Part shown: in pieces, positions 1-13,672 of the stretch
Layout of the letters: each line of letters starts with the position of its first letter
Numbering within the stretch: the first letter of the stretch is position 1
Virus genome (UHGV): UHGV-0140246
Reading direction: 5' to 3' (one strand)
Origin: a virus
DNA: 13,672 bases
Program-made: the position numbers and the translations under genes
The notes under the pieces: model-generated
Seen by the model: the letters and a program-made list of their open reading frames with translations, nothing else
Databases searched by the model: none
What the model was told of the DNA's origin: nothing

Positions 1-1422
1 GTGAAATTATTCAGATTCTCTAAAGTAAAAATTGCAGAACTGCCAACGCCGGAACATGGACAAGTCGAATACGGTGATACGGAGGTTAACGGGTTGCGTG
101 TCCGTGTGGGTTCGTCAGGTGTGAAAAGTTTCTGCATTTCCCGTAAGCGTAACGGAAAATTTATTCGTGCAACGCTGGGGCGTTTTCCTGATCTGAGCGT
201 GGATAATGCCAGGGCTAAAGCTATGGAACTCCTTGGCGAAGTCGCCACAACGGGGAAAAACCCGAACATAGCGAAGCGCACGAACAACAAGGCCATGATA
301 ACGCTGAATGAGGCACTTGAAGCCTACATAAAAAATCGTGGCCACCGCCTGAAACCCACCACAGAAAAACAGTACCGCAGCATATTACAGAATTATTCCG
401 GTGACTGGATGGCCCATACCCTCGCCAGTATTTCCCGCGAACGTGTGGAACAGCGACATAAAGCCGTCACCGACGGGGCTGTATGGTTCGGTGCTGATAA
501 AACCACGCTACGGGCTGGTGTTGGTACGGGAAGCAAGGCACAGGCCGATTTATGGGCGCGTGCGCTGCGTGCTGTGTGTCGGTTTGCGCATGATCATTAC
601 CGTGATGATGCGGGTAATACTCTTTTACCGGATCCGCCGACTCTGGTACTGAGCACCAAGCGCCAGTGGCACGGAACGGTAAGAAAAACGGAACGTATCC
701 GCCTGCATGATTTTCCCCGCTGGTTTGCTGCTGTAGCTGCTGTACGCGAACAGGGCGAACAGGAAAGGGATGATATAGCGGTGACGGTATGCGATGCCGT
801 GGAAATGGCGCTTTTTACCGGACTGAGGAAATCAGAAATTTTTGGCCTTACGTGGGATCGCGTGAATATGGGCGGTCGTTTTTTCTGGATAGACACCACG
901 AAAAACGGGGATCCGCTCGAATTACCGATTACTGATACGTTGCGGGAAATGTTCCACCGCAGACTGAAAATAAAAAACGCTGATGATGTTCTGGTGTTCC
1001 CTGGTGTGAAGGGAGTGATTCAGGAAACACGGCACATCATAGACCGGATAAGCGCGGCTACTGTTTCTGATGATAATGATGAAATGCTCTCCCCTGTACC
1101 ATTCAAATGGCACGATGCGCGCCGGACGTTCGGGACGGTTGCCGAACTGGTGGGCGTGGGTAATTACATCCTCAAGCGCCTGATGAATCACCGCACTATG
1201 CGAAGTGCTGACGTAACGCAGGGGTATTTACATTTTGGTGCTGATGAACTGCTGGAGCCAGCATCACGGATAGAACGGGCAATTCTGGAAAATGCCGGGC
1301 TGGTGGAGAGTAAAAAATCTATCGATGCGCAATTGCTTTCTGTGCTGGAAAGCATGAGTGATGAAGAAAAACGGAAATTAATATTTTCTTTGATTCAAAA
1401 TGCAGAGGTGTCTAATAAATGA
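1..1422 (+). CDS. int: Tyrosine-type site-specific integrase (P4-like); the ORF begins with GTG at base 1, so the true start may lie upstream of the window
   Basis: 473-aa ORF; N-terminal arm-binding-like region (GLRVRVGSSGVKSFCISRKRNGKFIRATLGRFPDLSVDNARAKA); C-terminal catalytic region with WHDARRTF, MNHRTMRS and a candidate nucleophile Tyr in TQGYLHF; stop TGA 1420-1422. Confidence 0.85.
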   Translation: MKLFRFSKVKIAELPTPEHGQVEYGDTEVNGLRVRVGSSGVKSFCISRKRNGKFIRATLGRFPDLSVDNARAKAMELLGEVATTGKNPNIAKRTNNKAMITLNEALEAYIKNRGHRLKPTTEKQYRSILQNYSGDWMAHTLASISRERVEQRHKAVTDGAVWFGADKTTLRAGVGTGSKAQADLWARALRAVCRFAHDHYRDDAGNTLLPDPPTLVLSTKRQWHGTVRKTERIRLHDFPRWFAAVAAVREQGEQERDDIAVTVCDAVEMALFTGLRKSEIFGLTWDRVNMGGRFFWIDTTKNGDPLELPITDTLREMFHRRLKIKNADDVLVFPGVKGVIQETRHIIDRISAATVSDDNDEMLSPVPFKWHDARRTFGTVAELVGVGNYILKRLMNHRTMRSADVTQGYLHFGADELLEPASRIERAILENAGLVESKKSIDAQLLSVLESMSDEEKRKLIFSLIQNAEVSNK

Positions 1423-2219
1423 AATTTATCCCAGCAGATGAAGCCATTGATATGATGTTATCAAAAATGAACCATGAGGAAAAATTGGATTATTTAAAGG
1501 CAGCATGGGATTATGATTATAAAAAAATGAATGGGATACATTCTAAGTATGGTCTTTCATTTCCAATTCCTATCAGTGAATTAATGAGTGATGATGAGGC
1601 TAAAGAACTTGCTGGCGAAATGCTAAAATCACCAGTAACTGATGATGATATTATTTCTTCGATGTTGAATGAATTTGTTCCAGAAAGAAAAAGTAAGGTT
1701 TCTTTAGACGATTCTGTATCAATATTAAATGAGTTGCATCGGCTTGATTCTAATTTTAATAGTTTCAATGCCGCTAATCATTACCTTTCAGTATCATTGG
1801 GCGATGATGCTTTTACGGTGCTTAAGGCGTATTTATGTGCAGATGTTGCAGGCTGCGATAATCTTAAGAGTGATTTAATTAAGTTATATACTAAAATAAT
1901 TGTTAACTCATATCACGCTAAAGCATCTTCAATTGTTAGTAAGTCAAAAATCATCAGTGAAGACCGAAGTAAAGCAAAGAAAGGAAAAACAAACAGGCAT
2001 CAATCAACTGCGTTGGCTATAGCTGGTAGCACTTGGGAAAAATACCCTAATGCTAGTTTACCTGGGCTATCAGCAGAGATATACGCGCACTTACGCAATA
2101 AATGGAATGATGTCCCTGTAGTTGGGACTATAGAGAGATGGCTTAAGGAGTCGGGAATGAATCCAAAATCCCCGCAAAAAAATAGGGACTTTAAGTTAGT
2201 TATTGGAGACGAAGAATAA
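1419..2219 (+). CDS. Hypothetical protein, AT-rich cargo gene (266 aa), function unknown
   Basis: Long ORF whose ATG overlaps the int stop (ATGA at 1419-1422); I counted 20 G+C in its first 60 nt (about 33%), clearly below the GC-richer flanking genes; I recognise no motif in the translation. Confidence 0.6.
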   Translation: MKFIPADEAIDMMLSKMNHEEKLDYLKAAWDYDYKKMNGIHSKYGLSFPIPISELMSDDEAKELAGEMLKSPVTDDDIISSMLNEFVPERKSKVSLDDSVSILNELHRLDSNFNSFNAANHYLSVSLGDDAFTVLKAYLCADVAGCDNLKSDLIKLYTKIIVNSYHAKASSIVSKSKIISEDRSKAKKGKTNRHQSTALAIAGSTWEKYPNASLPGLSAEIYAHLRNKWNDVPVVGTIERWLKESGMNPKSPQKNRDFKLVIGDEE

Positions 2220-2288: not shown

Positions 2289-2360
2289 TCCTATCTTCAA
2301 GACTTCCCCATCGCTAAATAACGTATACCTGTTCTTAATCAGAAGTATACGGTGATACTC

Positions 2361-2549
2361 ATGCATTTAGAAAAGATGACCCGCAAAGAAGCTGCTGAGC
2401 ATTTGGGGGTAAGTGTCCAGACGCTGGCGAATTGGGCCTGTACTGGCAAGGTAAAAATCCCTTTTCATAAGCTGGGGCGCAAAGTGCTGTATATGCGCTC
2501 TGATCTCGATGCTTATCTTGCATCCACTCGCAGAACGCAGACGGTGTAA
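2361..2549 (+). CDS. Small helix-turn-helix DNA-binding protein, excisionase/Xis-like; start uncertain (GTG 2352, ATG 2361 or ATG 2376)
   Basis: ORF translation contains MTRKEAAEHLGVSVQTLANWACTGKVKIPFHKLGRKVLYMRSDLDAYL, the pattern I associate with excisionase-type winged HTH proteins. Confidence 0.6.
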   Translation: MHLEKMTRKEAAEHLGVSVQTLANWACTGKVKIPFHKLGRKVLYMRSDLDAYLASTRRTQTV

Positions 2550-2559
2550 GGGGGGAGTG

Positions 2560-2763
2560 ATGGCTCAATTTGACCGCATAATCCGTGAGGCTGAATGCAG
2601 TAAGTTAACCGGGGTTAGCCGTACCACTCGCTATGAACTGGAGAAAAAAGGGAGCTTTCCGTCTCGCCGTAATCTTGGTGGGCGTTCTGTAGGTTGGTTG
2701 CTTTCCGAAGTTATGGACTGGGTGCAAAACCGTGACCGAGTTAATTCAGGTAAGGCAGCATAG
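2560..2763 (+). CDS. alpA: AlpA-family phage transcriptional regulator
   Basis: Internal ATG at 2560 preceded by GGGGGAG Shine-Dalgarno; translation MAQFDRIIREAECSKLTGVSRTTRYELEKKGSFPSRRNLGGRSVGWLLSEVMDWV fits the AlpA pattern (LTG-SR-T-Y, G-FP, GGRSV-W, EV-W). Confidence 0.7.
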   Translation: MAQFDRIIREAECSKLTGVSRTTRYELEKKGSFPSRRNLGGRSVGWLLSEVMDWVQNRDRVNSGKAA

Positions 2764-2776
2764 GGGGAGTGATGGC

Positions 2777-2808
2777 ACATAAAACAAAGGCGACCGGGGG
2801 CGGTCGCC
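2777..2808 (-). terminator. Candidate rho-independent terminator for the leftward (minus-strand) transcript
   Basis: Perfect 8-bp GC-rich stem GGCGACCG/CGGTCGCC with a 4-nt loop at 2789-2808; on the minus strand it is followed by TTTGTTTTAT (complement of 2779-2788). Confidence 0.45.
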
Positions 2809-2902
2809 AATGGATACACACTAAACTTGAACGCATCACCAACAATGCCACATTTGCGGCTGGTGGGCAATGTGATCAGTGTGCTGGCTTGCTGGTTGGC
2901 TG

Positions 2903-3085
2903 TCAGCCTTTGGGTTCTATGCCTTCTTTGCGTAGCTTATCACGACAAGCATTTTTTACCCATGAGCTGAAATTACCAGGCCCTGCAACTTCGTTAATTT
3001 GTTGCAACAATGTGTCTTCGAAGCGGATGTTTTTCTTTGTGCTGCCGGAGCGATCAAATTTTGGTTTCACATTTTCTTCTTGCAT
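2903..3085 (-). CDS. Small divergently transcribed DNA-binding-like protein (possible ribbon-helix-helix fold); candidate repressor
   Basis: 60-aa minus-strand ORF MQEENVKPKFDRSGSTKKNIRFEDTLLQQINEVAGPGNFSSWVKNACRDKLRKEG; predicted strand-helix-helix arrangement is my inference; its start codon abuts the palindromic operators. Confidence 0.5.
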   Translation of the reverse strand: MQEENVKPKFDRSGSTKKNIRFEDTLLQQINEVAGPGNFSSWVKNACRDKLRKEGIEPKG

Positions 3086-3107
3086 TGGTACGTACCATCG
3101 TTATAAA
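3080..3107 (+). promoter_or_regulatory. Candidate sigma70 promoter for the rightward icd-to-primase operon
   Basis: -35-like TTGCAT (3080-3085), 16-bp spacer, -10-like TATAAA (3102-3107); the spacer is occupied by operator copy 1; the -35 match is weak. Confidence 0.35.
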
Positions 3108-3130
3108 CTGAAATCAAATGGTACGTACCA
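3086..3130. promoter_or_regulatory. Two copies of a perfect 12-bp palindrome TGGTACGTACCA (3086-3097 and 3119-3130), centre-to-centre 33 bp; candidate paired operators
   Basis: Read directly; each copy is its own reverse complement; located between the divergent minus-strand gene and the icd-like gene. Confidence 0.65.
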
Positions 3131-3160
3131 CATTAAAAATACGCAACCATTAAATACAGC

Positions 3161-3195
3161 GAAGCCCGGCAGTGCGGGAACACTAACCGGGCTTC
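3161..3195. other. Perfect 9-bp inverted repeat GAAGCCCGG-N17-CCGGGCTTC in the leader upstream of the icd-like gene; candidate RNA stem-loop or protein-binding site
   Basis: Read directly from sequence; no U-tract follows on the + strand. Confidence 0.4.
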
Positions 3196-3230
3196 TAACC
3201 ACCAACGATAGAAAGCGTATCGAGGTAGCT

Positions 3231-3434
3231 ATGTTAAATCATACCACACACCCGCAAGGGCGGGACTCGCACAACCTGAATAAATACATCTGGCGTTTTA
3301 TCGCCCTGAGCACGGCACAACCGCGCGTGATTACCATTGAGGCCACCAGCGAACAGGAAGCACGCCAGCAATCCCCGGCTGGCTGCGTGATGGTATTCGC
3401 CGCCCGTATTCGTCAGGGGGTGTGCCATGCCTGA
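3231..3434 (+). CDS. Icd-like small protein (host cell division inhibitor-like, as found in P4-type elements); assignment from memory
   Basis: Internal ATG at 3231 of the 2769-3434 ORF, preceded by GAGG at 3222-3225; translation MLNHTTHPQGRDSHNLNKYIWRFIALSTAQPRVITIEATSEQEARQQSPAGCVMVFAARIRQ. Confidence 0.5.
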   Translation: MLNHTTHPQGRDSHNLNKYIWRFIALSTAQPRVITIEATSEQEARQQSPAGCVMVFAARIRQGVCHA

Positions 3435-3747
3435 TATGTCAAATTACCAGTACCTGATTAATCCGCATTTTAACTGTGAGCATGATATTGCTAAAAAGGT
3501 TTATTCCGCTGCGGATGGGGCTACTGACAATATATCAATGGCTGTTGCGTCAATTGGTAGCCTGATGTGGCATGCGTCAGAAAATGAGGACTATGACGAA
3601 AAGGCCATGCGCATTGATATGGGTAATATTGGTTTGTTACTGGCAATGCTTGGACATTTTGATATTTCGTTACGGTGCACCATTGAAAATGCCACAGATG
3701 CATTAAATGCTATAAAGAAAGCGAATACTGATTCAAATCGGGGATAA
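3427..3747 (+). CDS. Hypothetical protein (106 aa)
   Basis: ORF overlaps the icd-like stop (ATGCCTGA); AGGGGG Shine-Dalgarno 7 nt upstream; lower GC than neighbours by eye. Confidence 0.55.
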   Translation: MPDMSNYQYLINPHFNCEHDIAKKVYSAADGATDNISMAVASIGSLMWHASENEDYDEKAMRIDMGNIGLLLAMLGHFDISLRCTIENATDALNAIKKANTDSNRG

Positions 3748-3753
3748 ATAATC

Positions 3754-4053
3754 ATGAGAACATATTTATCTGGCTTGACTGCCAGCGGTTATGCACACCC
3801 CAAAATTATCCCCGGCGCTATTTATCTGGATAAGAACGGTAACAGAGTAACGGTAAAAGAACTGATGTTTGACCGTGTGTATTTTATTCGTGATGGCTAT
3901 TCATTTCATAGTTCGCTGAACGTGGAGATCTTTATTAGCAGATTCAGGCGGGAAATCCCGCTTTCCAGAAAAAACCATGTGTCACGTGTGAATGTGGATA
4001 AAAAACTACAGGAACTGAAAAACATGATTGCCGCGTGGAGAGAGCAGAAATGA
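3754..4053 (+). CDS. Hypothetical protein (99 aa)
   Basis: ORF whose stop overlaps the start of the primase gene (ATGA at 4050-4053). Confidence 0.55.
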   Translation: MRTYLSGLTASGYAHPKIIPGAIYLDKNGNRVTVKELMFDRVYFIRDGYSFHSSLNVEIFISRFRREIPLSRKNHVSRVNVDKKLQELKNMIAAWREQK

Positions 4054-5867
4054 AAAAAGCGCCAAATTTAAAACACCAGCCGCGTGACAAAATGACGGAA
4101 GTCATCATTTTTGCGGGTAGTGATGCGTGGGCACATGCGAAGCAGTGGCAGGAACAGGACGGGCGACTGGCTGGCGATAACGTGCCTCCTGTCTGGCTTG
4201 GAGAGCAACAACTTGCCGAACTGGACAACCTGCAAATCGTACCGGACGGACGCTATCGCGTGCGTCTCTATCAGGCGGGGTTATTGCGTCCGGGGCTTGT
4301 TAATACCATCGGGCAGAAACTGGCAGCGGCAGGTGTCAGGGATGCTGATTATTACCCTGAAGGAATGCACAGCCAGAAACGGGAGAACTGGCGCGAATAT
4401 CTGGAACGTGAGCGGGGAGAGCTGGCGGAAAAGAAAAAGGTAGTTGAACTGCCTGTAAAGAAAAAAGAGCGGGTAAAAGACGATAACGCTTCATCACTGG
4501 CGCTTAACCAGATGGGAGCAAGTCAACGCGGCGAAGTTCTCCTGGCACATTATGGCGGTGAACTGGCGATTCATGCCGACTCTGACACTGTTCACCATTA
4601 CAACGGCGTTGTATGGGAGCCGGTTCAGGATAAAGAGTTACAGCGTGCTATGGCGCAGATTTTCATTGATGCGGAGATCAGCTATTCGCAGAACGCCATT
4701 AAATCGGCGGTCGATACCATGAAGTTAAGTTTGCCTGTAATGGGGAATACAGCCCGTAACCTGATTGGATTCAGTAACGGGGTATTTGATACCAGAACAG
4801 GTAATTTTCGGGAGCATAACAAAAACGACTGGTTGTTAATTGCCAGTGAATTACCTTTCAGCCCACCAGCAGAGGGGGAAACGCTGGCAACACATGCGCC
4901 GAATTTCTGGAAGTGGTTACGCCGTTCGGTGGCTGAGAATGACCGCAAGGCGGATCGCGTACTGGCTGCATTATTCATGGTGCTGGCGAACCGGTACGAC
5001 TGGCAGTTATTCATTGAGGTAACAGGTCCAGGGGGAAGTGGTAAAAGCGTGATGGCGGAGATTTGCACCATGCTGGCGGGTAAGGCCAACACAGTATCGG
5101 CAAGCATGAAGGCGCTGGAAGATGCAAGGGAACGCGCGTTAGTGGTTGGCTTTTCGCTGATTATCATGCCGGATATGACCCGCTACGCTGGTGATGGGGC
5201 AGGGATTAAGGCTATTACAGGCGGTGACAAGGTGGCAATTGACCCGAAACACAAAGCCCCCTACTCAACGCGTATTCCGGCAGTAGTGCTGGCGGTTAAC
5301 AATAACGCCATGTCATTCAGTGACCGCAGTGGGGGGATCTCACGTCGTCGGGTGATATTCAATTTTTCGGAAGTTGTACCGGAGAACGAACGTGATCCAA
5401 TGCTGGCGGAAAAAATAGAAGGTGAGCTGGCGGTAGTGATTCGCCATCTGCTTACACGGTTTGCTGACCAGGACGAAGCCAGACGCCTGTTATATGAGCA
5501 GCAGAAATCTGAAGAAGCACTGGCGATAAAGCGAGAGGGGGATTCGCTGGTGGACTTCTGCGGCTATCTCATGGCGTCGGTAATGTGTGATGGCCTGTTA
5601 GTGGGTAATGCTGAAATTGTGCCATTCAGCCCACGCAGGTATCTCTATCATGCCTATCTGGCTTATATGAGGGCACATGGGTTTGGTAAACCTGTAACAC
5701 TGACGCGCTTCGGTAAAGATATGCCGGGGGCAATGGCGGAATATGGCAGGGAGTATATGAAACGGAAAACGAAGCACGGTTTGCGTTCAAACGTGACACT
5801 GACGGAGGAATCAGAAGACTGGATGCCATCATGTGTATCGGTCACTAATGACGATAGCAAAAATTAA
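4050..5867 (+). CDS. Primase/helicase replication protein (P4 alpha-like, P-loop NTPase); start probably ATG 4050 rather than GTG 4035
   Basis: About 605-aa ORF; Walker A motif TGPGGSGKS in the central region; GGAGAG Shine-Dalgarno before ATG 4050; an iteron cluster lies immediately downstream. Confidence 0.7.
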   Translation: MKKAPNLKHQPRDKMTEVIIFAGSDAWAHAKQWQEQDGRLAGDNVPPVWLGEQQLAELDNLQIVPDGRYRVRLYQAGLLRPGLVNTIGQKLAAAGVRDADYYPEGMHSQKRENWREYLERERGELAEKKKVVELPVKKKERVKDDNASSLALNQMGASQRGEVLLAHYGGELAIHADSDTVHHYNGVVWEPVQDKELQRAMAQIFIDAEISYSQNAIKSAVDTMKLSLPVMGNTARNLIGFSNGVFDTRTGNFREHNKNDWLLIASELPFSPPAEGETLATHAPNFWKWLRRSVAENDRKADRVLAALFMVLANRYDWQLFIEVTGPGGSGKSVMAEICTMLAGKANTVSASMKALEDARERALVVGFSLIIMPDMTRYAGDGAGIKAITGGDKVAIDPKHKAPYSTRIPAVVLAVNNNAMSFSDRSGGISRRRVIFNFSEVVPENERDPMLAEKIEGELAVVIRHLLTRFADQDEARRLLYEQQKSEEALAIKREGDSLVDFCGYLMASVMCDGLLVGNAEIVPFSPRRYLYHAYLAYMRAHGFGKPVTLTRFGKDMPGAMAEYGREYMKRKTKHGLRSNVTLTEESEDWMPSCVSVTNDDSKN

Positions 5868-5878
5868 ACTTATGGAAT

Positions 5879-6111
5879 AACTGTTCACCACTGTTCACCC
5901 TGTCATAAATATCTTTTGTATCAGTATGTTATAGGGTGAACAGTTATTTATGAACTGTTCACCAAACTATTCACTGTTCACCTTTTTGATTGTTTATTGA
6001 GCTTCAAGGGTGAACAGTGGTGAACAGTTGGTGAATAGTTTTTGTGAAACTGTTCACCCCTTAACATTATGAATTAAAAGATAAAATATCAAAAGGTGAA
6101 CAGGTGAAGGG
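5879..6111. repeat. Iteron cluster, candidate origin of replication: about 11 copies of TGTTCACC / GGTGAACA in both orientations within an AT-rich intergenic region
   Basis: Forward copies at 5882-5889, 5892-5899, 5956-5963, 5975-5982, 6051-6058; reverse copies at 5935-5942, 6009-6016, 6019-6026, 6095-6102; degenerate copies at 6030-6037 and 6104-6111. Confidence 0.75.
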
Positions 6112-6154
6112 TTAAAACGCAAAAATTTTAATTTACTGCTGTGAGATAAAGCCT

Positions 6155-13385: not shown

Positions 13386-13672
13386 CGAGAATGACTGAAA
13401 CTGATCTACTAAAAATAATTCGCCGCATTACCGGAATCAGTCAGCAGCCTGACGAACAGGCTACACAGCCGGACAGCGTGATAGCCGAAAATTACGCGCG
13501 TGTGGTGGCTGAGGTAATGCGCCGTGACGGTATTGAGCTTAACGGCGTGGATATGCGCAACATACGAACCAGAGTTCTTGAGTTGCTGGCATACCGTCGC
13601 CGTTCTCAACAACGGAGGGAGAGCGCGAAAAATACTTACCAGTGGAGGAAGCCGGAGCACTTACGGCGGTAA
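13382..13672 (+). CDS. Hypothetical protein (96 aa), last gene of the packaging operon within the window
   Basis: ATG overlaps the terL stop (ATGA at 13382-13385); stop TAA at 13670-13672. Confidence 0.5.
   Translation: MTRMTETDLLKIIRRITGISQQPDEQATQPDSVIAENYARVVAEVMRRDGIELNGVDMRNIRTRVLELLAYRRRSQQRRESAKNTYQWRKPEHLRR

Follow-up and report, generated by a model that had tools for sequence, protein, structure and literature searches.

Three coupled small genes before the replication gene of an Escherichia coli phage satellite, and a predicted antisense RNA opposite the first of them

What are the three small open reading frames (ORFs) for that stand directly before the replication gene of UHGV-0140246, a viral stretch of 13,672 nt (the window, below)? 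Judged by its gene set, the window is a satellite of Escherichia coli of the phage-inducible chromosomal island (PICI) type, and probably of its capsid-forming kind (cfPICI). An initial annotation saw an Icd-like ORF followed by two unknown ones, placed like the small genes upstream of alpha in satellite P4, and suggested that one of them might derepress a helper prophage. The three ORFs are an ordinary, largely expected component of a satellite early operon; the type of operon, the Icd-like gene and the DUF4222/RgdR family of the third ORF are already known. The reading towards which we lean, if only somewhat, is that this operon has the plan of P4's left operon, with ORF1 as a gate, an antisense RNA acting at that gate, and ORF2 and ORF3 as accessory genes. 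The question reaches beyond one element. Of the complete E. coli genomes searched, about one in three has a PICI-type satellite, and these elements affect phage spread, gene transfer and virulence. How Gram-negative PICIs silence their replication operon, and how AlpA opens it, is poorly understood; an RNA switch at a Kil/Icd gene would fill this gap and would tie PICIs mechanistically to P4 and P1.

Coupling of the three ORFs and the family of the first

The genes in question are:

3231-3434, plus strand: ORF1, the first short translated gene of the early operon; 67 amino acids (aa), isoelectric point (pI) 9.5, ATG after GAGG
3427-3747, plus strand: ORF2; 106 aa, pI 4.8; phrog_15327
3754-4053, plus strand: ORF3; 99 aa, pI 10.2; DUF4222/RgdR family

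Their coordinates and coupling are exactly as first described. ORF1 and ORF2 overlap by 8 nt (ATGCCTGA), ORF2 and ORF3 are 6 nt apart, and the TGA of ORF3 shares ATGA with the start codon of the replication gene at 4050. The lower GC content that had been seen by eye in ORF2 and ORF3 is borne out by calculation (40.6% and 42.1%, against 57.7% in ORF1 and about 50-55% in the flanks). All three genes are under purifying selection, the pairwise ratios of nonsynonymous to synonymous substitution rates (dN/dS) against homologues being 0.19-0.48 for ORF1, 0.06-0.22 for ORF2 and 0.14-0.39 for ORF3. Because these ratios are low, and because homologues of each ORF keep the same operon position in many other elements, the three are genuine coding genes and not chance ORFs.

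The coupling is shared by related loci. We surveyed the junctions in 24 loci, namely the window, P4, E. coli loci and 17 loci of other Enterobacterales; the gene after the Icd-like gene overlaps its stop codon in every one of them (8 nt at 18 loci, 11 nt at six), and a run of two to seven small ORFs, with overlaps mostly of 4 or 8 nt, leads to the replication protein. Across elements, the interval between the Icd-like gene and the replication gene is filled by varying combinations of about ten recurrent small-protein families. By megablast, other E. coli elements typically match the window only over 3160-3430 (91-95% conserved), a block made up of ORF1 and 70 nt upstream, the right edge of which falls exactly at the start codon of ORF2; since this block matches alone, recombination evidently shuffles cassettes at the coupled junctions. 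The segment 2850-4400 is matched at least in part by 1719 of 5426 complete E. coli genomes and over at least 80% of its length in 266, and near-identical copies of it reside in E. coli chromosomes. A tblastn search of 50,697 phage records matched ORF1 once, in a cfPICI that had been submitted as a phage, and matched neither ORF2 nor ORF3.

In one E. coli element (L001; NZ_CP061101.1) the regulatory region and the ORF1-3 block are 99.4% identical to those of the window. Its replication body, a DUF927 protein of 707 aa, differs from that of the window, and its late module, with a lambda-like capsid, a decoration protein and TerS only, is that of a classical PICI and not of a capsid-forming one. 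That the same block is joined to another body and another late module indicates recent exchange of modules between types of satellite.

ORF1 was called Icd-like, and rightly so: it matches NCBIfam NF033153, a 48-residue Icd-like domain, at 69.8 bits (cut-off 25; 1.5e-19), and also phrog_6196 at 1.5e-45. The old "cI" ORF of P4, whose last 65 codons are kil (ATG after CAGGAGG), matches the same NF033153 model at 73.9 bits (7.8e-21; residues 85-132). Because the Kil region of P4 and ORF1 match one model, ORF1 is, by sequence and beyond its position, a protein of the Kil/Icd family. Moreover, kil and epsilon of P4 overlap by 8 nt (GTGCGTAA), the same length as the ORF1/ORF2 overlap, and the analogy with P4, which had been drawn from position, is stronger than was claimed. 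The left operon of P4 runs from orf88/vis(alpA) through eta, containing kil (CI RNA), to epsilon, orf151, orf106 and alpha, and the same order of functions is found in the window. The statement that P4-like roles lacked sequence evidence thus has to be given up for ORF1, in view of its homology to Kil, while it stands for an epsilon-like role of ORF2 or ORF3. Since ORF2, ORF3 and the replication gene follow ORF1 by overlap or near-abutment, we take translation of ORF1 to gate the genes downstream, and ORF1 would be the translational gate of the operon.

The eta-like frame and the minus-strand hairpins

Upstream of, and opposite, the ribosome-binding site of ORF1 lie the following features:

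2557-2763, plus strand: AlpA-family regulator gene (Pfam Phage_AlpA, 3.2e-17), the upstream neighbour and putative source of read-through or coupled translation into the eta-like frame
2769-3434, plus strand: eta-like nested frame, in frame with ORF1 and sharing its stop; GTG at 2769 or ATG at 2772 after AGGGGG, 6-9 nt past the alpA stop
2903-3085, minus strand: small divergent gene of the YlcI/YnfO type (Pfam DUF3950, 5.6e-08; NCBIfam YlcI_YnfO_N, 31.1 bits, cut-off 30)
3086-3097 and 3119-3130, no strand assigned: a 12-bp palindrome (TGGTACGTACCA) in two perfect copies, 33 bp from one to the next, in the gap that separates ORF1 from the divergent gene of the ylcI type
3158-3230, minus strand: two-hairpin RNA element of about 73 nt, opposite the 5' untranslated region and ribosome-binding site of ORF1 and ending beside its start codon
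3238-3246, minus strand: candidate extended -10 (TGGTATGAT), read by eye, inside codons 3-6 of ORF1, its end 7 nt ahead of 3230, the first base of helix 1

The eta-like frame traverses the minus-strand ylcI gene and the promoter region without a stop codon. A nested long frame, in frame with the small gene and starting just past the alpA homologue, is a feature that the window shares with P4; the divergent YlcI-type gene within it is found in the window and not in P4. Nearly all loci have such an open extension of the Icd-like frame on its upstream side, some 35-360 codons long (for example, L003 8578-9552, L008 3725-5008 and L013 2688-3698). The extension shows a dN/dS of about 0.4-1, that is, weak or no constraint at the level of protein, and it has no Pfam domain except for Phage_ASH in one locus. 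We therefore rejected the extension as a conserved protein, but not the open frame itself; the ratios fit a frame that is kept open for the passage of ribosomes and not for its product. In the ylcI overlap, the dN/dS test of which strand is coding met saturated sequences. In P4, eta is the long form of kil and is coupled to the alpA homologue; Eta is made only from the upstream late promoter and its translation prevents premature termination, while Kil is translated from an internal promoter (PMC10111431). By analogy, ribosomes that arrive from alpA may override the antisense target described next by way of the eta-like frame.

That target is a conserved structure. Folding of 3158-3230 gives -37.5 kcal/mol on the minus strand (z -5.8) and -28.1 kcal/mol on the plus strand (z -3.1). 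In an alignment of 15 distinct sequences with a structure of 27 pairs, 95.5% of the cells pair on the minus strand, 68 of them as G-U, as against 79.8% and six G-U on the plus strand, and eight pairs are altered on both sides. When a covariance model was made from these 15 sequences, it picked out the element in seven more loci (41-69.5 bits), each time on the minus strand and beside the start of an Icd-like gene. In this independent set the share of cells that pair is 90.7% on the minus strand (26 G-U) and 77.5% on the plus strand (two G-U), with ten compensatory pairs, a level of pairing reached by none of 500 shuffles; the alignment of the seven was fitted to the model, so that their pairing is somewhat inflated, while the asymmetry between G-U and A-C is unaffected. 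With G-U pairs in excess on the minus strand in both sets, a function in the sense strand alone is excluded. Every Icd-like locus without C4 that we examined carries the element, and in 15 of 15 sequences the TAnnnT hexamer of the candidate -10 keeps its spacing to helix 1 while its distance to the ATG varies. Conserved hairpins with a minus-strand bias, together with a -10 at fixed spacing, lead us to predict a cis-antisense RNA of about 73 nt, complementary to the ribosome-binding site of ORF1; the element is probably a cis-antisense RNA that has not been described before.

Rfam found neither C4 (RF01695) nor isrK in the window at E <= 1, and it found neither of the two in the other loci that carry the hairpin element. 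A C4-type RNA overlooked by Rfam was considered and rejected, as positive controls for C4/isrK were detected both in P4 (74.9 bits) and in an E. albertii locus, L016 (77.7 bits). Unlike P4, then, the window has no C4/CI RNA and no seqA/isrK, and the minus-strand element stands in their place; homologues of C4/isrK are reported from "several" PICIs only, in the work that divides PICIs into a "Bro zone" and a "replication zone" (PMC10111431). The best Rfam match in the window is SymR (RF01809), on the minus strand, at 34.8 bits and E 0.0018; the gathering threshold is 61, and membership of that family was rejected on this score. A resemblance is nonetheless evident, since SymR, the cis-antisense RNA of symE, is about 75 nt long, forms two hairpins, has its 5' end beside the start of its target and is complementary to the ribosome-binding site; its target gene is, however, unrelated to ORF1, and common descent is not indicated. 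A search of the literature for a small RNA (sRNA) in CP-933C found none.

The immI region of P1 (c4 - icd - ant1/ant2) offers a second parallel. There, translation of the small icd is needed for the overlapping downstream gene, Icd blocks division, and an RNA acts at the ribosome-binding site of icd, as is predicted in the window. The C4 RNA of P1, in contrast, acts in trans, arises by processing of the same transcript and is a member of RF01695, which was not detected in the window, and the gene after icd encodes an antirepressor where the window has replication genes.

Between the hairpins and the divergent gene, related elements carry other palindromes at the same place (for example, GTGTTCAACAC and GGTGTACACC, by eye). 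The palindromes are probably element-specific operators, perhaps for the YlcI/YnfO protein, itself a candidate DNA-binding regulator of the intergenic region. Other loci also have a small minus-strand gene at the position of ylcI.

ORF2, ORF3 and the replication protein

Downstream of ORF3 lie:

4050-5867, plus strand: replication protein, 605 aa; Pfam D5_N, DUF5906 and Pox_D5; SF3-helicase body
4050-4454, plus strand: N-terminal domain of the replication protein, 135 aa; phrog_2850

The description of ORF2 and ORF3 as unknown holds for ORF2, which belongs to an unnamed family, and fails for ORF3, which matches Pfam DUF4222 (PF13973) at 61.1 bits (cut-off 27) and is 35% identical, over its full length, to the DUF4222 gene of O157. 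RgdR (ECs1581), the DUF4222 protein of the island OI-51/CP-933C of E. coli O157:H7, has 99 aa and a pI of 10; it activates the LEE1 promoter and represses motility, and its deletion affects the uninduced host (PMC3378721, PMC10877973). Its binding to DNA is not sequence-specific, and it changes the expression of genes (PMC3378721). Homologues of RgdR are reported in CFT073 and O157 islands, and an RGD motif at residues 20-22 is linked to the activation of type III secretion. ORF3 lacks this motif, having P20-G21-A22 where the O157 protein has R-G-D. In the O157 island the DUF4222 gene lies directly before the replication gene, with an ATGA overlap, as it does in the window. ORF3 and RgdR thus share the Pfam family, the length of 99 aa, a basic pI and the slot before a PICI-type replication gene; the replication gene of the O157 island, however, encodes a RepA-type helicase, unlike that of the window, and a function related to LEE (the locus of enterocyte effacement) is not to be assumed for ORF3.

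The gene downstream had been called a primase. It does encode a replication protein, but only residues 320-771 of P4 alpha, comprising the helicase and the C-terminal part, align to it (51% identity), the first 320 or so residues of alpha being replaced by an unrelated N-terminal domain of 135 aa; the protein may therefore be without a primase domain. This N-terminal domain is common to 11 replication proteins, and ten of the 11 are exactly those of the loci that have a full-length DUF4222 gene. The bodies joined to it vary (a D5-type primase/helicase, a RepA AAA_25 helicase or a DUF927 protein), and where the same body has another N-terminus, as in L022 and P4 alpha, there is no DUF4222 gene. 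Moreover, in 11 of the 12 loci with a DUF4222 gene the replication gene comes next. Because DUF4222 goes with the N-terminal domain, whatever the helicase body, both act as one exchangeable module, which suggests that the two are functional partners. Neither the DUF4222 profile nor the N-terminal domain has a match in the PDB, and the N-terminal domain has none in Pfam.

ORF2 has no match in Pfam, NCBIfam or PADLOC, and its PHROG match is of unknown function. When searched as a single sequence against 1.8 billion representatives it gave 15 matches, some of them to proteins with tetratricopeptide repeats (TPR) by way of one motif; analysis of the slot revealed homologues at 20-40% identity in other genera, and the profile then found 128 cluster representatives, all of 86-171 aa and mostly of 100-111, none of which carries a family name. 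The hosts include Escherichia, Citrobacter, Klebsiella, Yersinia, Serratia, Rahnella, Enterobacter, Hafnia and other genera, and the family is restricted to satellites of Enterobacterales. ORF2 is predicted to be all-helical, in a structure model of low confidence. The conserved motif of the family, IGxLMxHAxxNExY...DMxNIGLLLxxLG, weakly resembles one TPR hairpin, and the profile matched PDB sequences only in TPR-like proteins, at E >= 0.08. The only real clue to function would seem to be placement: in every context examined the gene is in the same operon, normally two genes before the replication gene (at least 12 contexts, in many genera). The small gene in between is DUF4222 in E. coli and an unrelated family of 112-122 aa elsewhere. 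The family is widespread and now without annotation, and the account put forward below would give it a name.

The family of 112-122 aa (cluster c5) takes the place of DUF4222 in eight loci from outside E. coli (L008, L017, L021, L024, L025, L031, L033 and L035). It has no match in Pfam and may be a functional analogue of DUF4222.

How do ORF2 and ORF3 compare with the genes of P4 at the corresponding positions? P4 epsilon belongs to Pfam PF25738, the Derepression protein family (9.2e-51). ORF2 and ORF3 have no match to PF25738 at E <= 0.1, nor to a family related to it, and none to epsilon by BLASTP, and hhalign gives a probability of 0.3% for the ORF2 family against epsilon. P4 ORF106 is DUF5375 (2.9e-63) and lies directly before alpha in the P4 record; against it, ORF2 and ORF3 were likewise negative by Pfam, BLASTP and hhalign. 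We take ORF106 to be Cnr. The copy-number regulator gene cnr of P4 lies between epsilon and alpha (PMC8628076). No relationship links ORF2 or ORF3 to epsilon, orf151 or Cnr of P4. Across loci the two track the replication gene and not the Icd-like gene, which brings them nearer to the position of cnr than to that of epsilon. The profile comparisons that had been called for thus came out negative for epsilon and for ORF106 alike, and structure prediction gave models of ORF2 and ORF3 with a mean confidence (pLDDT) of 55 and 59.

Alternative explanations and the rest of the element

The account that we favour can be put as follows. The operon would run from alpA through an eta frame containing kil and a set of coupled small genes to the replication protein. 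In the resting, prophage-like state the gate at ORF1 would be shut by the cis-antisense RNA, transcribed from within the 5' end of ORF1 across its ribosome-binding site, and the YlcI-type protein, at the two palindromes, may add to the silencing. Once a helper phage turns on alpA, transcripts from upstream would be translated along the eta-like frame, over the antisense target, and the operon would open. The product of ORF1, when made, would probably inhibit division or be toxic, as are P1 Icd and P4 Kil. ORF3, as a small basic DNA-binding protein of the RgdR type, and ORF2, as a small acidic helical protein, would be accessory factors of the replication protein, acting on its N-terminal domain or on the use of the origin, in a role like that of Cnr.

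Several points weigh against this account. The toxicity of ORF1 is deduced from membership of its family alone. The promoter scan did not call the candidate antisense promoter, the extended -10 of which was read by eye and has no -35, nor did it reveal, on the window's plus strand, any clear promoter of the sigma-70 type for ORF1, although TTGACG-17-TAnnnT was read by eye in other loci. Behind hairpin 2 the U-rich stretch is short and broken, and no terminator was called there. For neither ORF2 nor ORF3 could homology be detected with Cnr or with a known replication factor, and their structure models are of low confidence; the known phenotypes of RgdR concern virulence and motility of the host, not replication; and the co-occurrence of DUF4222 with the N-terminal domain could be mere linkage of neighbouring DNA.

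Some of these points favour other readings, of the hairpins as well as of the genes. With so poor a U-rich tail, the predicted antisense RNA could be the 5' part of the ylcI mRNA and not a discrete sRNA. The hairpins would then be a leader of that mRNA or, in variants of the same idea, would terminate minus-strand transcription that arrives from the right, or act as a structure of the sense mRNA. On the same strand ylcI does lie downstream of the hairpins, transcripts could enter them from a promoter-like site at 3494-3467, also on the minus strand, and both a canonical U-tract and a promoter called by a tool are missing. The sense-mRNA variant is, however, contradicted by the G-U asymmetry, the TAnnnT hexamer lies at a fixed 7 nt from helix 1, and the element recombines with ORF1 as one block, whatever the minus-strand gene beyond it or the gene after ORF1; in any event, a minus-strand RNA would still be complementary to the ribosome-binding site of ORF1 in every variant. 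We regard this reading of the hairpins as unlikely, though it deserves to be taken seriously. Turning to the genes, ORF1 to ORF3 and the replication gene might serve mainly as a module for phage-triggered cell death or superinfection exclusion, the effector being the Icd-like protein; this is suggested by E. coli ECOR61, the architecture of which matches the window. In that strain, studied by Silas et al., growth arrest triggered by phage is reported to be caused by an Icd-like gene and five genes linked to it, one of them for a primase, and the effect is abolished once the Icd-like gene is removed (bioRxiv 10.1101/2023.04.06.535777). The ECOR61 genes may, however, be of families other than those of ORF2 and ORF3, PADLOC gives no match in the window, and the effect is equally expected if a phage protein merely induces the early operon of a satellite. 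Such a module, which we consider improbable, is compatible with the P4-like account and does not exclude it.

Two further readings concern ORF2 and ORF3. Both genes might be low-GC cargo ("morons") that reprogrammes expression of the host, as RgdR does for type III secretion and motility, and would then have no part in satellite replication. Their GC content of 41-42%, against about 52% in their neighbours, speaks for this, as does the example of RgdR, a DUF4222 protein at the same position in OI-51 with effects on LEE1, on motility and, when deleted, on the uninduced host. But ORF3 has PGA instead of RGD, LEE is absent from most hosts of DUF4222 and ORF2-family genes, and strict placement, coupling to the replication gene and co-occurrence with the N-terminal domain are not what free cargo would show. 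Cargo in PICI-type elements is, besides, usually found beside the integrase, where the window has an AT-rich ORF (1419-2219, below). The cargo reading therefore receives little weight from us. Least probable of all, in our judgement quite improbable, is the initial proposal, in which ORF2, or less likely ORF3, would be an antirepressor like epsilon or Ant that binds the repressor of the helper and induces it, with ORF1 as its Kil-like partner. In the window ORF2 does fill the slot of P4 epsilon and P1 ant1, directly after the Icd/Kil gene and with the 8-nt overlap; the slot after the Icd-like gene varies among elements, as is expected of helper-specific factors; and a small, acidic, helical protein with a TPR-like motif would suit a protein binder. 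Helper derepression is nevertheless unsupported by the comparisons with epsilon (PF25738) by Pfam, BLASTP and hhalign. Other genera have the ORF2 family second to last before the replication gene and not beside the Icd-like gene, and the family, with its low dN/dS, is conserved in Yersinia, Rahnella and Hafnia as well as in Escherichia, unlike a fast-evolving, helper-specific antirepressor; it is this conservation across genera, with the association with the replication gene, that makes the derepressor idea less likely. Moreover, PICIs are induced by their helpers and are not known to induce them.

The P4-like account may be extended, much more tentatively and on the doubtful side, to most enterobacterial PICI-type satellites: the antisense RNA of about 73 nt, starting within the Icd/Kil gene, would have replaced C4/CI in these elements and would mask the ribosome-binding site of that gene, keeping the entire replication operon closed, ribosomes in the eta-like frame would override it, and ORF2 and DUF4222 would be dedicated partners of an exchangeable N-terminal domain. 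We found, in the literature searched, no description of the ORF2 family, of the module of DUF4222 and the N-terminal domain, or of a minus-strand RNA that replaces C4. If the proposal is correct, RgdR, which has hitherto been known only for regulating virulence in E. coli O157, would acquire a native function, and its effects on virulence would be a side effect of a satellite replication factor.

The remaining features of the window are:

1-1422, plus strand: integrase
1419-2219, plus strand: AT-rich ORF of 266 aa (32% GC), overlapping the integrase stop by 4 nt
2352-2549, plus strand: HTH_17 gene
5879-6113, no strand assigned: probable replication origin, with 11 copies of GGTGAACAG / CTGTTCACC in both orientations (repeat search)
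downstream, plus strand: gene for a protein that binds single-stranded DNA (SSB), then genes for an HK97-type capsid, S78 prohead protease, portal, head-tail connector, HNH, TerS and TerL

Integrase, HTH/AlpA, SSB, HK97 capsid, S78 protease, portal, connector, HNH, TerS and TerL make up the satellite gene set, and every gene listed for a cfPICI was found; a cfPICI should besides be free of tail genes, and the window stops at 13672, still inside the late region and short of the right end of the element. The order (integrase, alpA, a regulatory zone, primase/SSB/origin, late genes) is that of Gram-negative PICIs and cfPICIs such as EcCICFT073 and EcCIEDL933. In contrast to P4, whose late region has sid, delta and psu, the window carries a full capsid and packaging set.

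The ORF of 266 aa beside the integrase has no match in Pfam, PHROGs, NCBIfam or PADLOC. It occupies a spot at which satellites often hold cargo or defence genes; L001, the closest relative in E. coli, has another gene there. An int-alpA RNA (RF02996) lies between integrase and alpA in L013, L014, L018, L020 and L026; Rfam found none at E <= 1 in the window. A match to the microRNA MIR1508 inside 5879-6113 was judged spurious. The iterons there, with a unit of 9 bp, lie directly 3' of the replication gene in an AT-rich stretch of 32% GC, which is probably the origin of replication.

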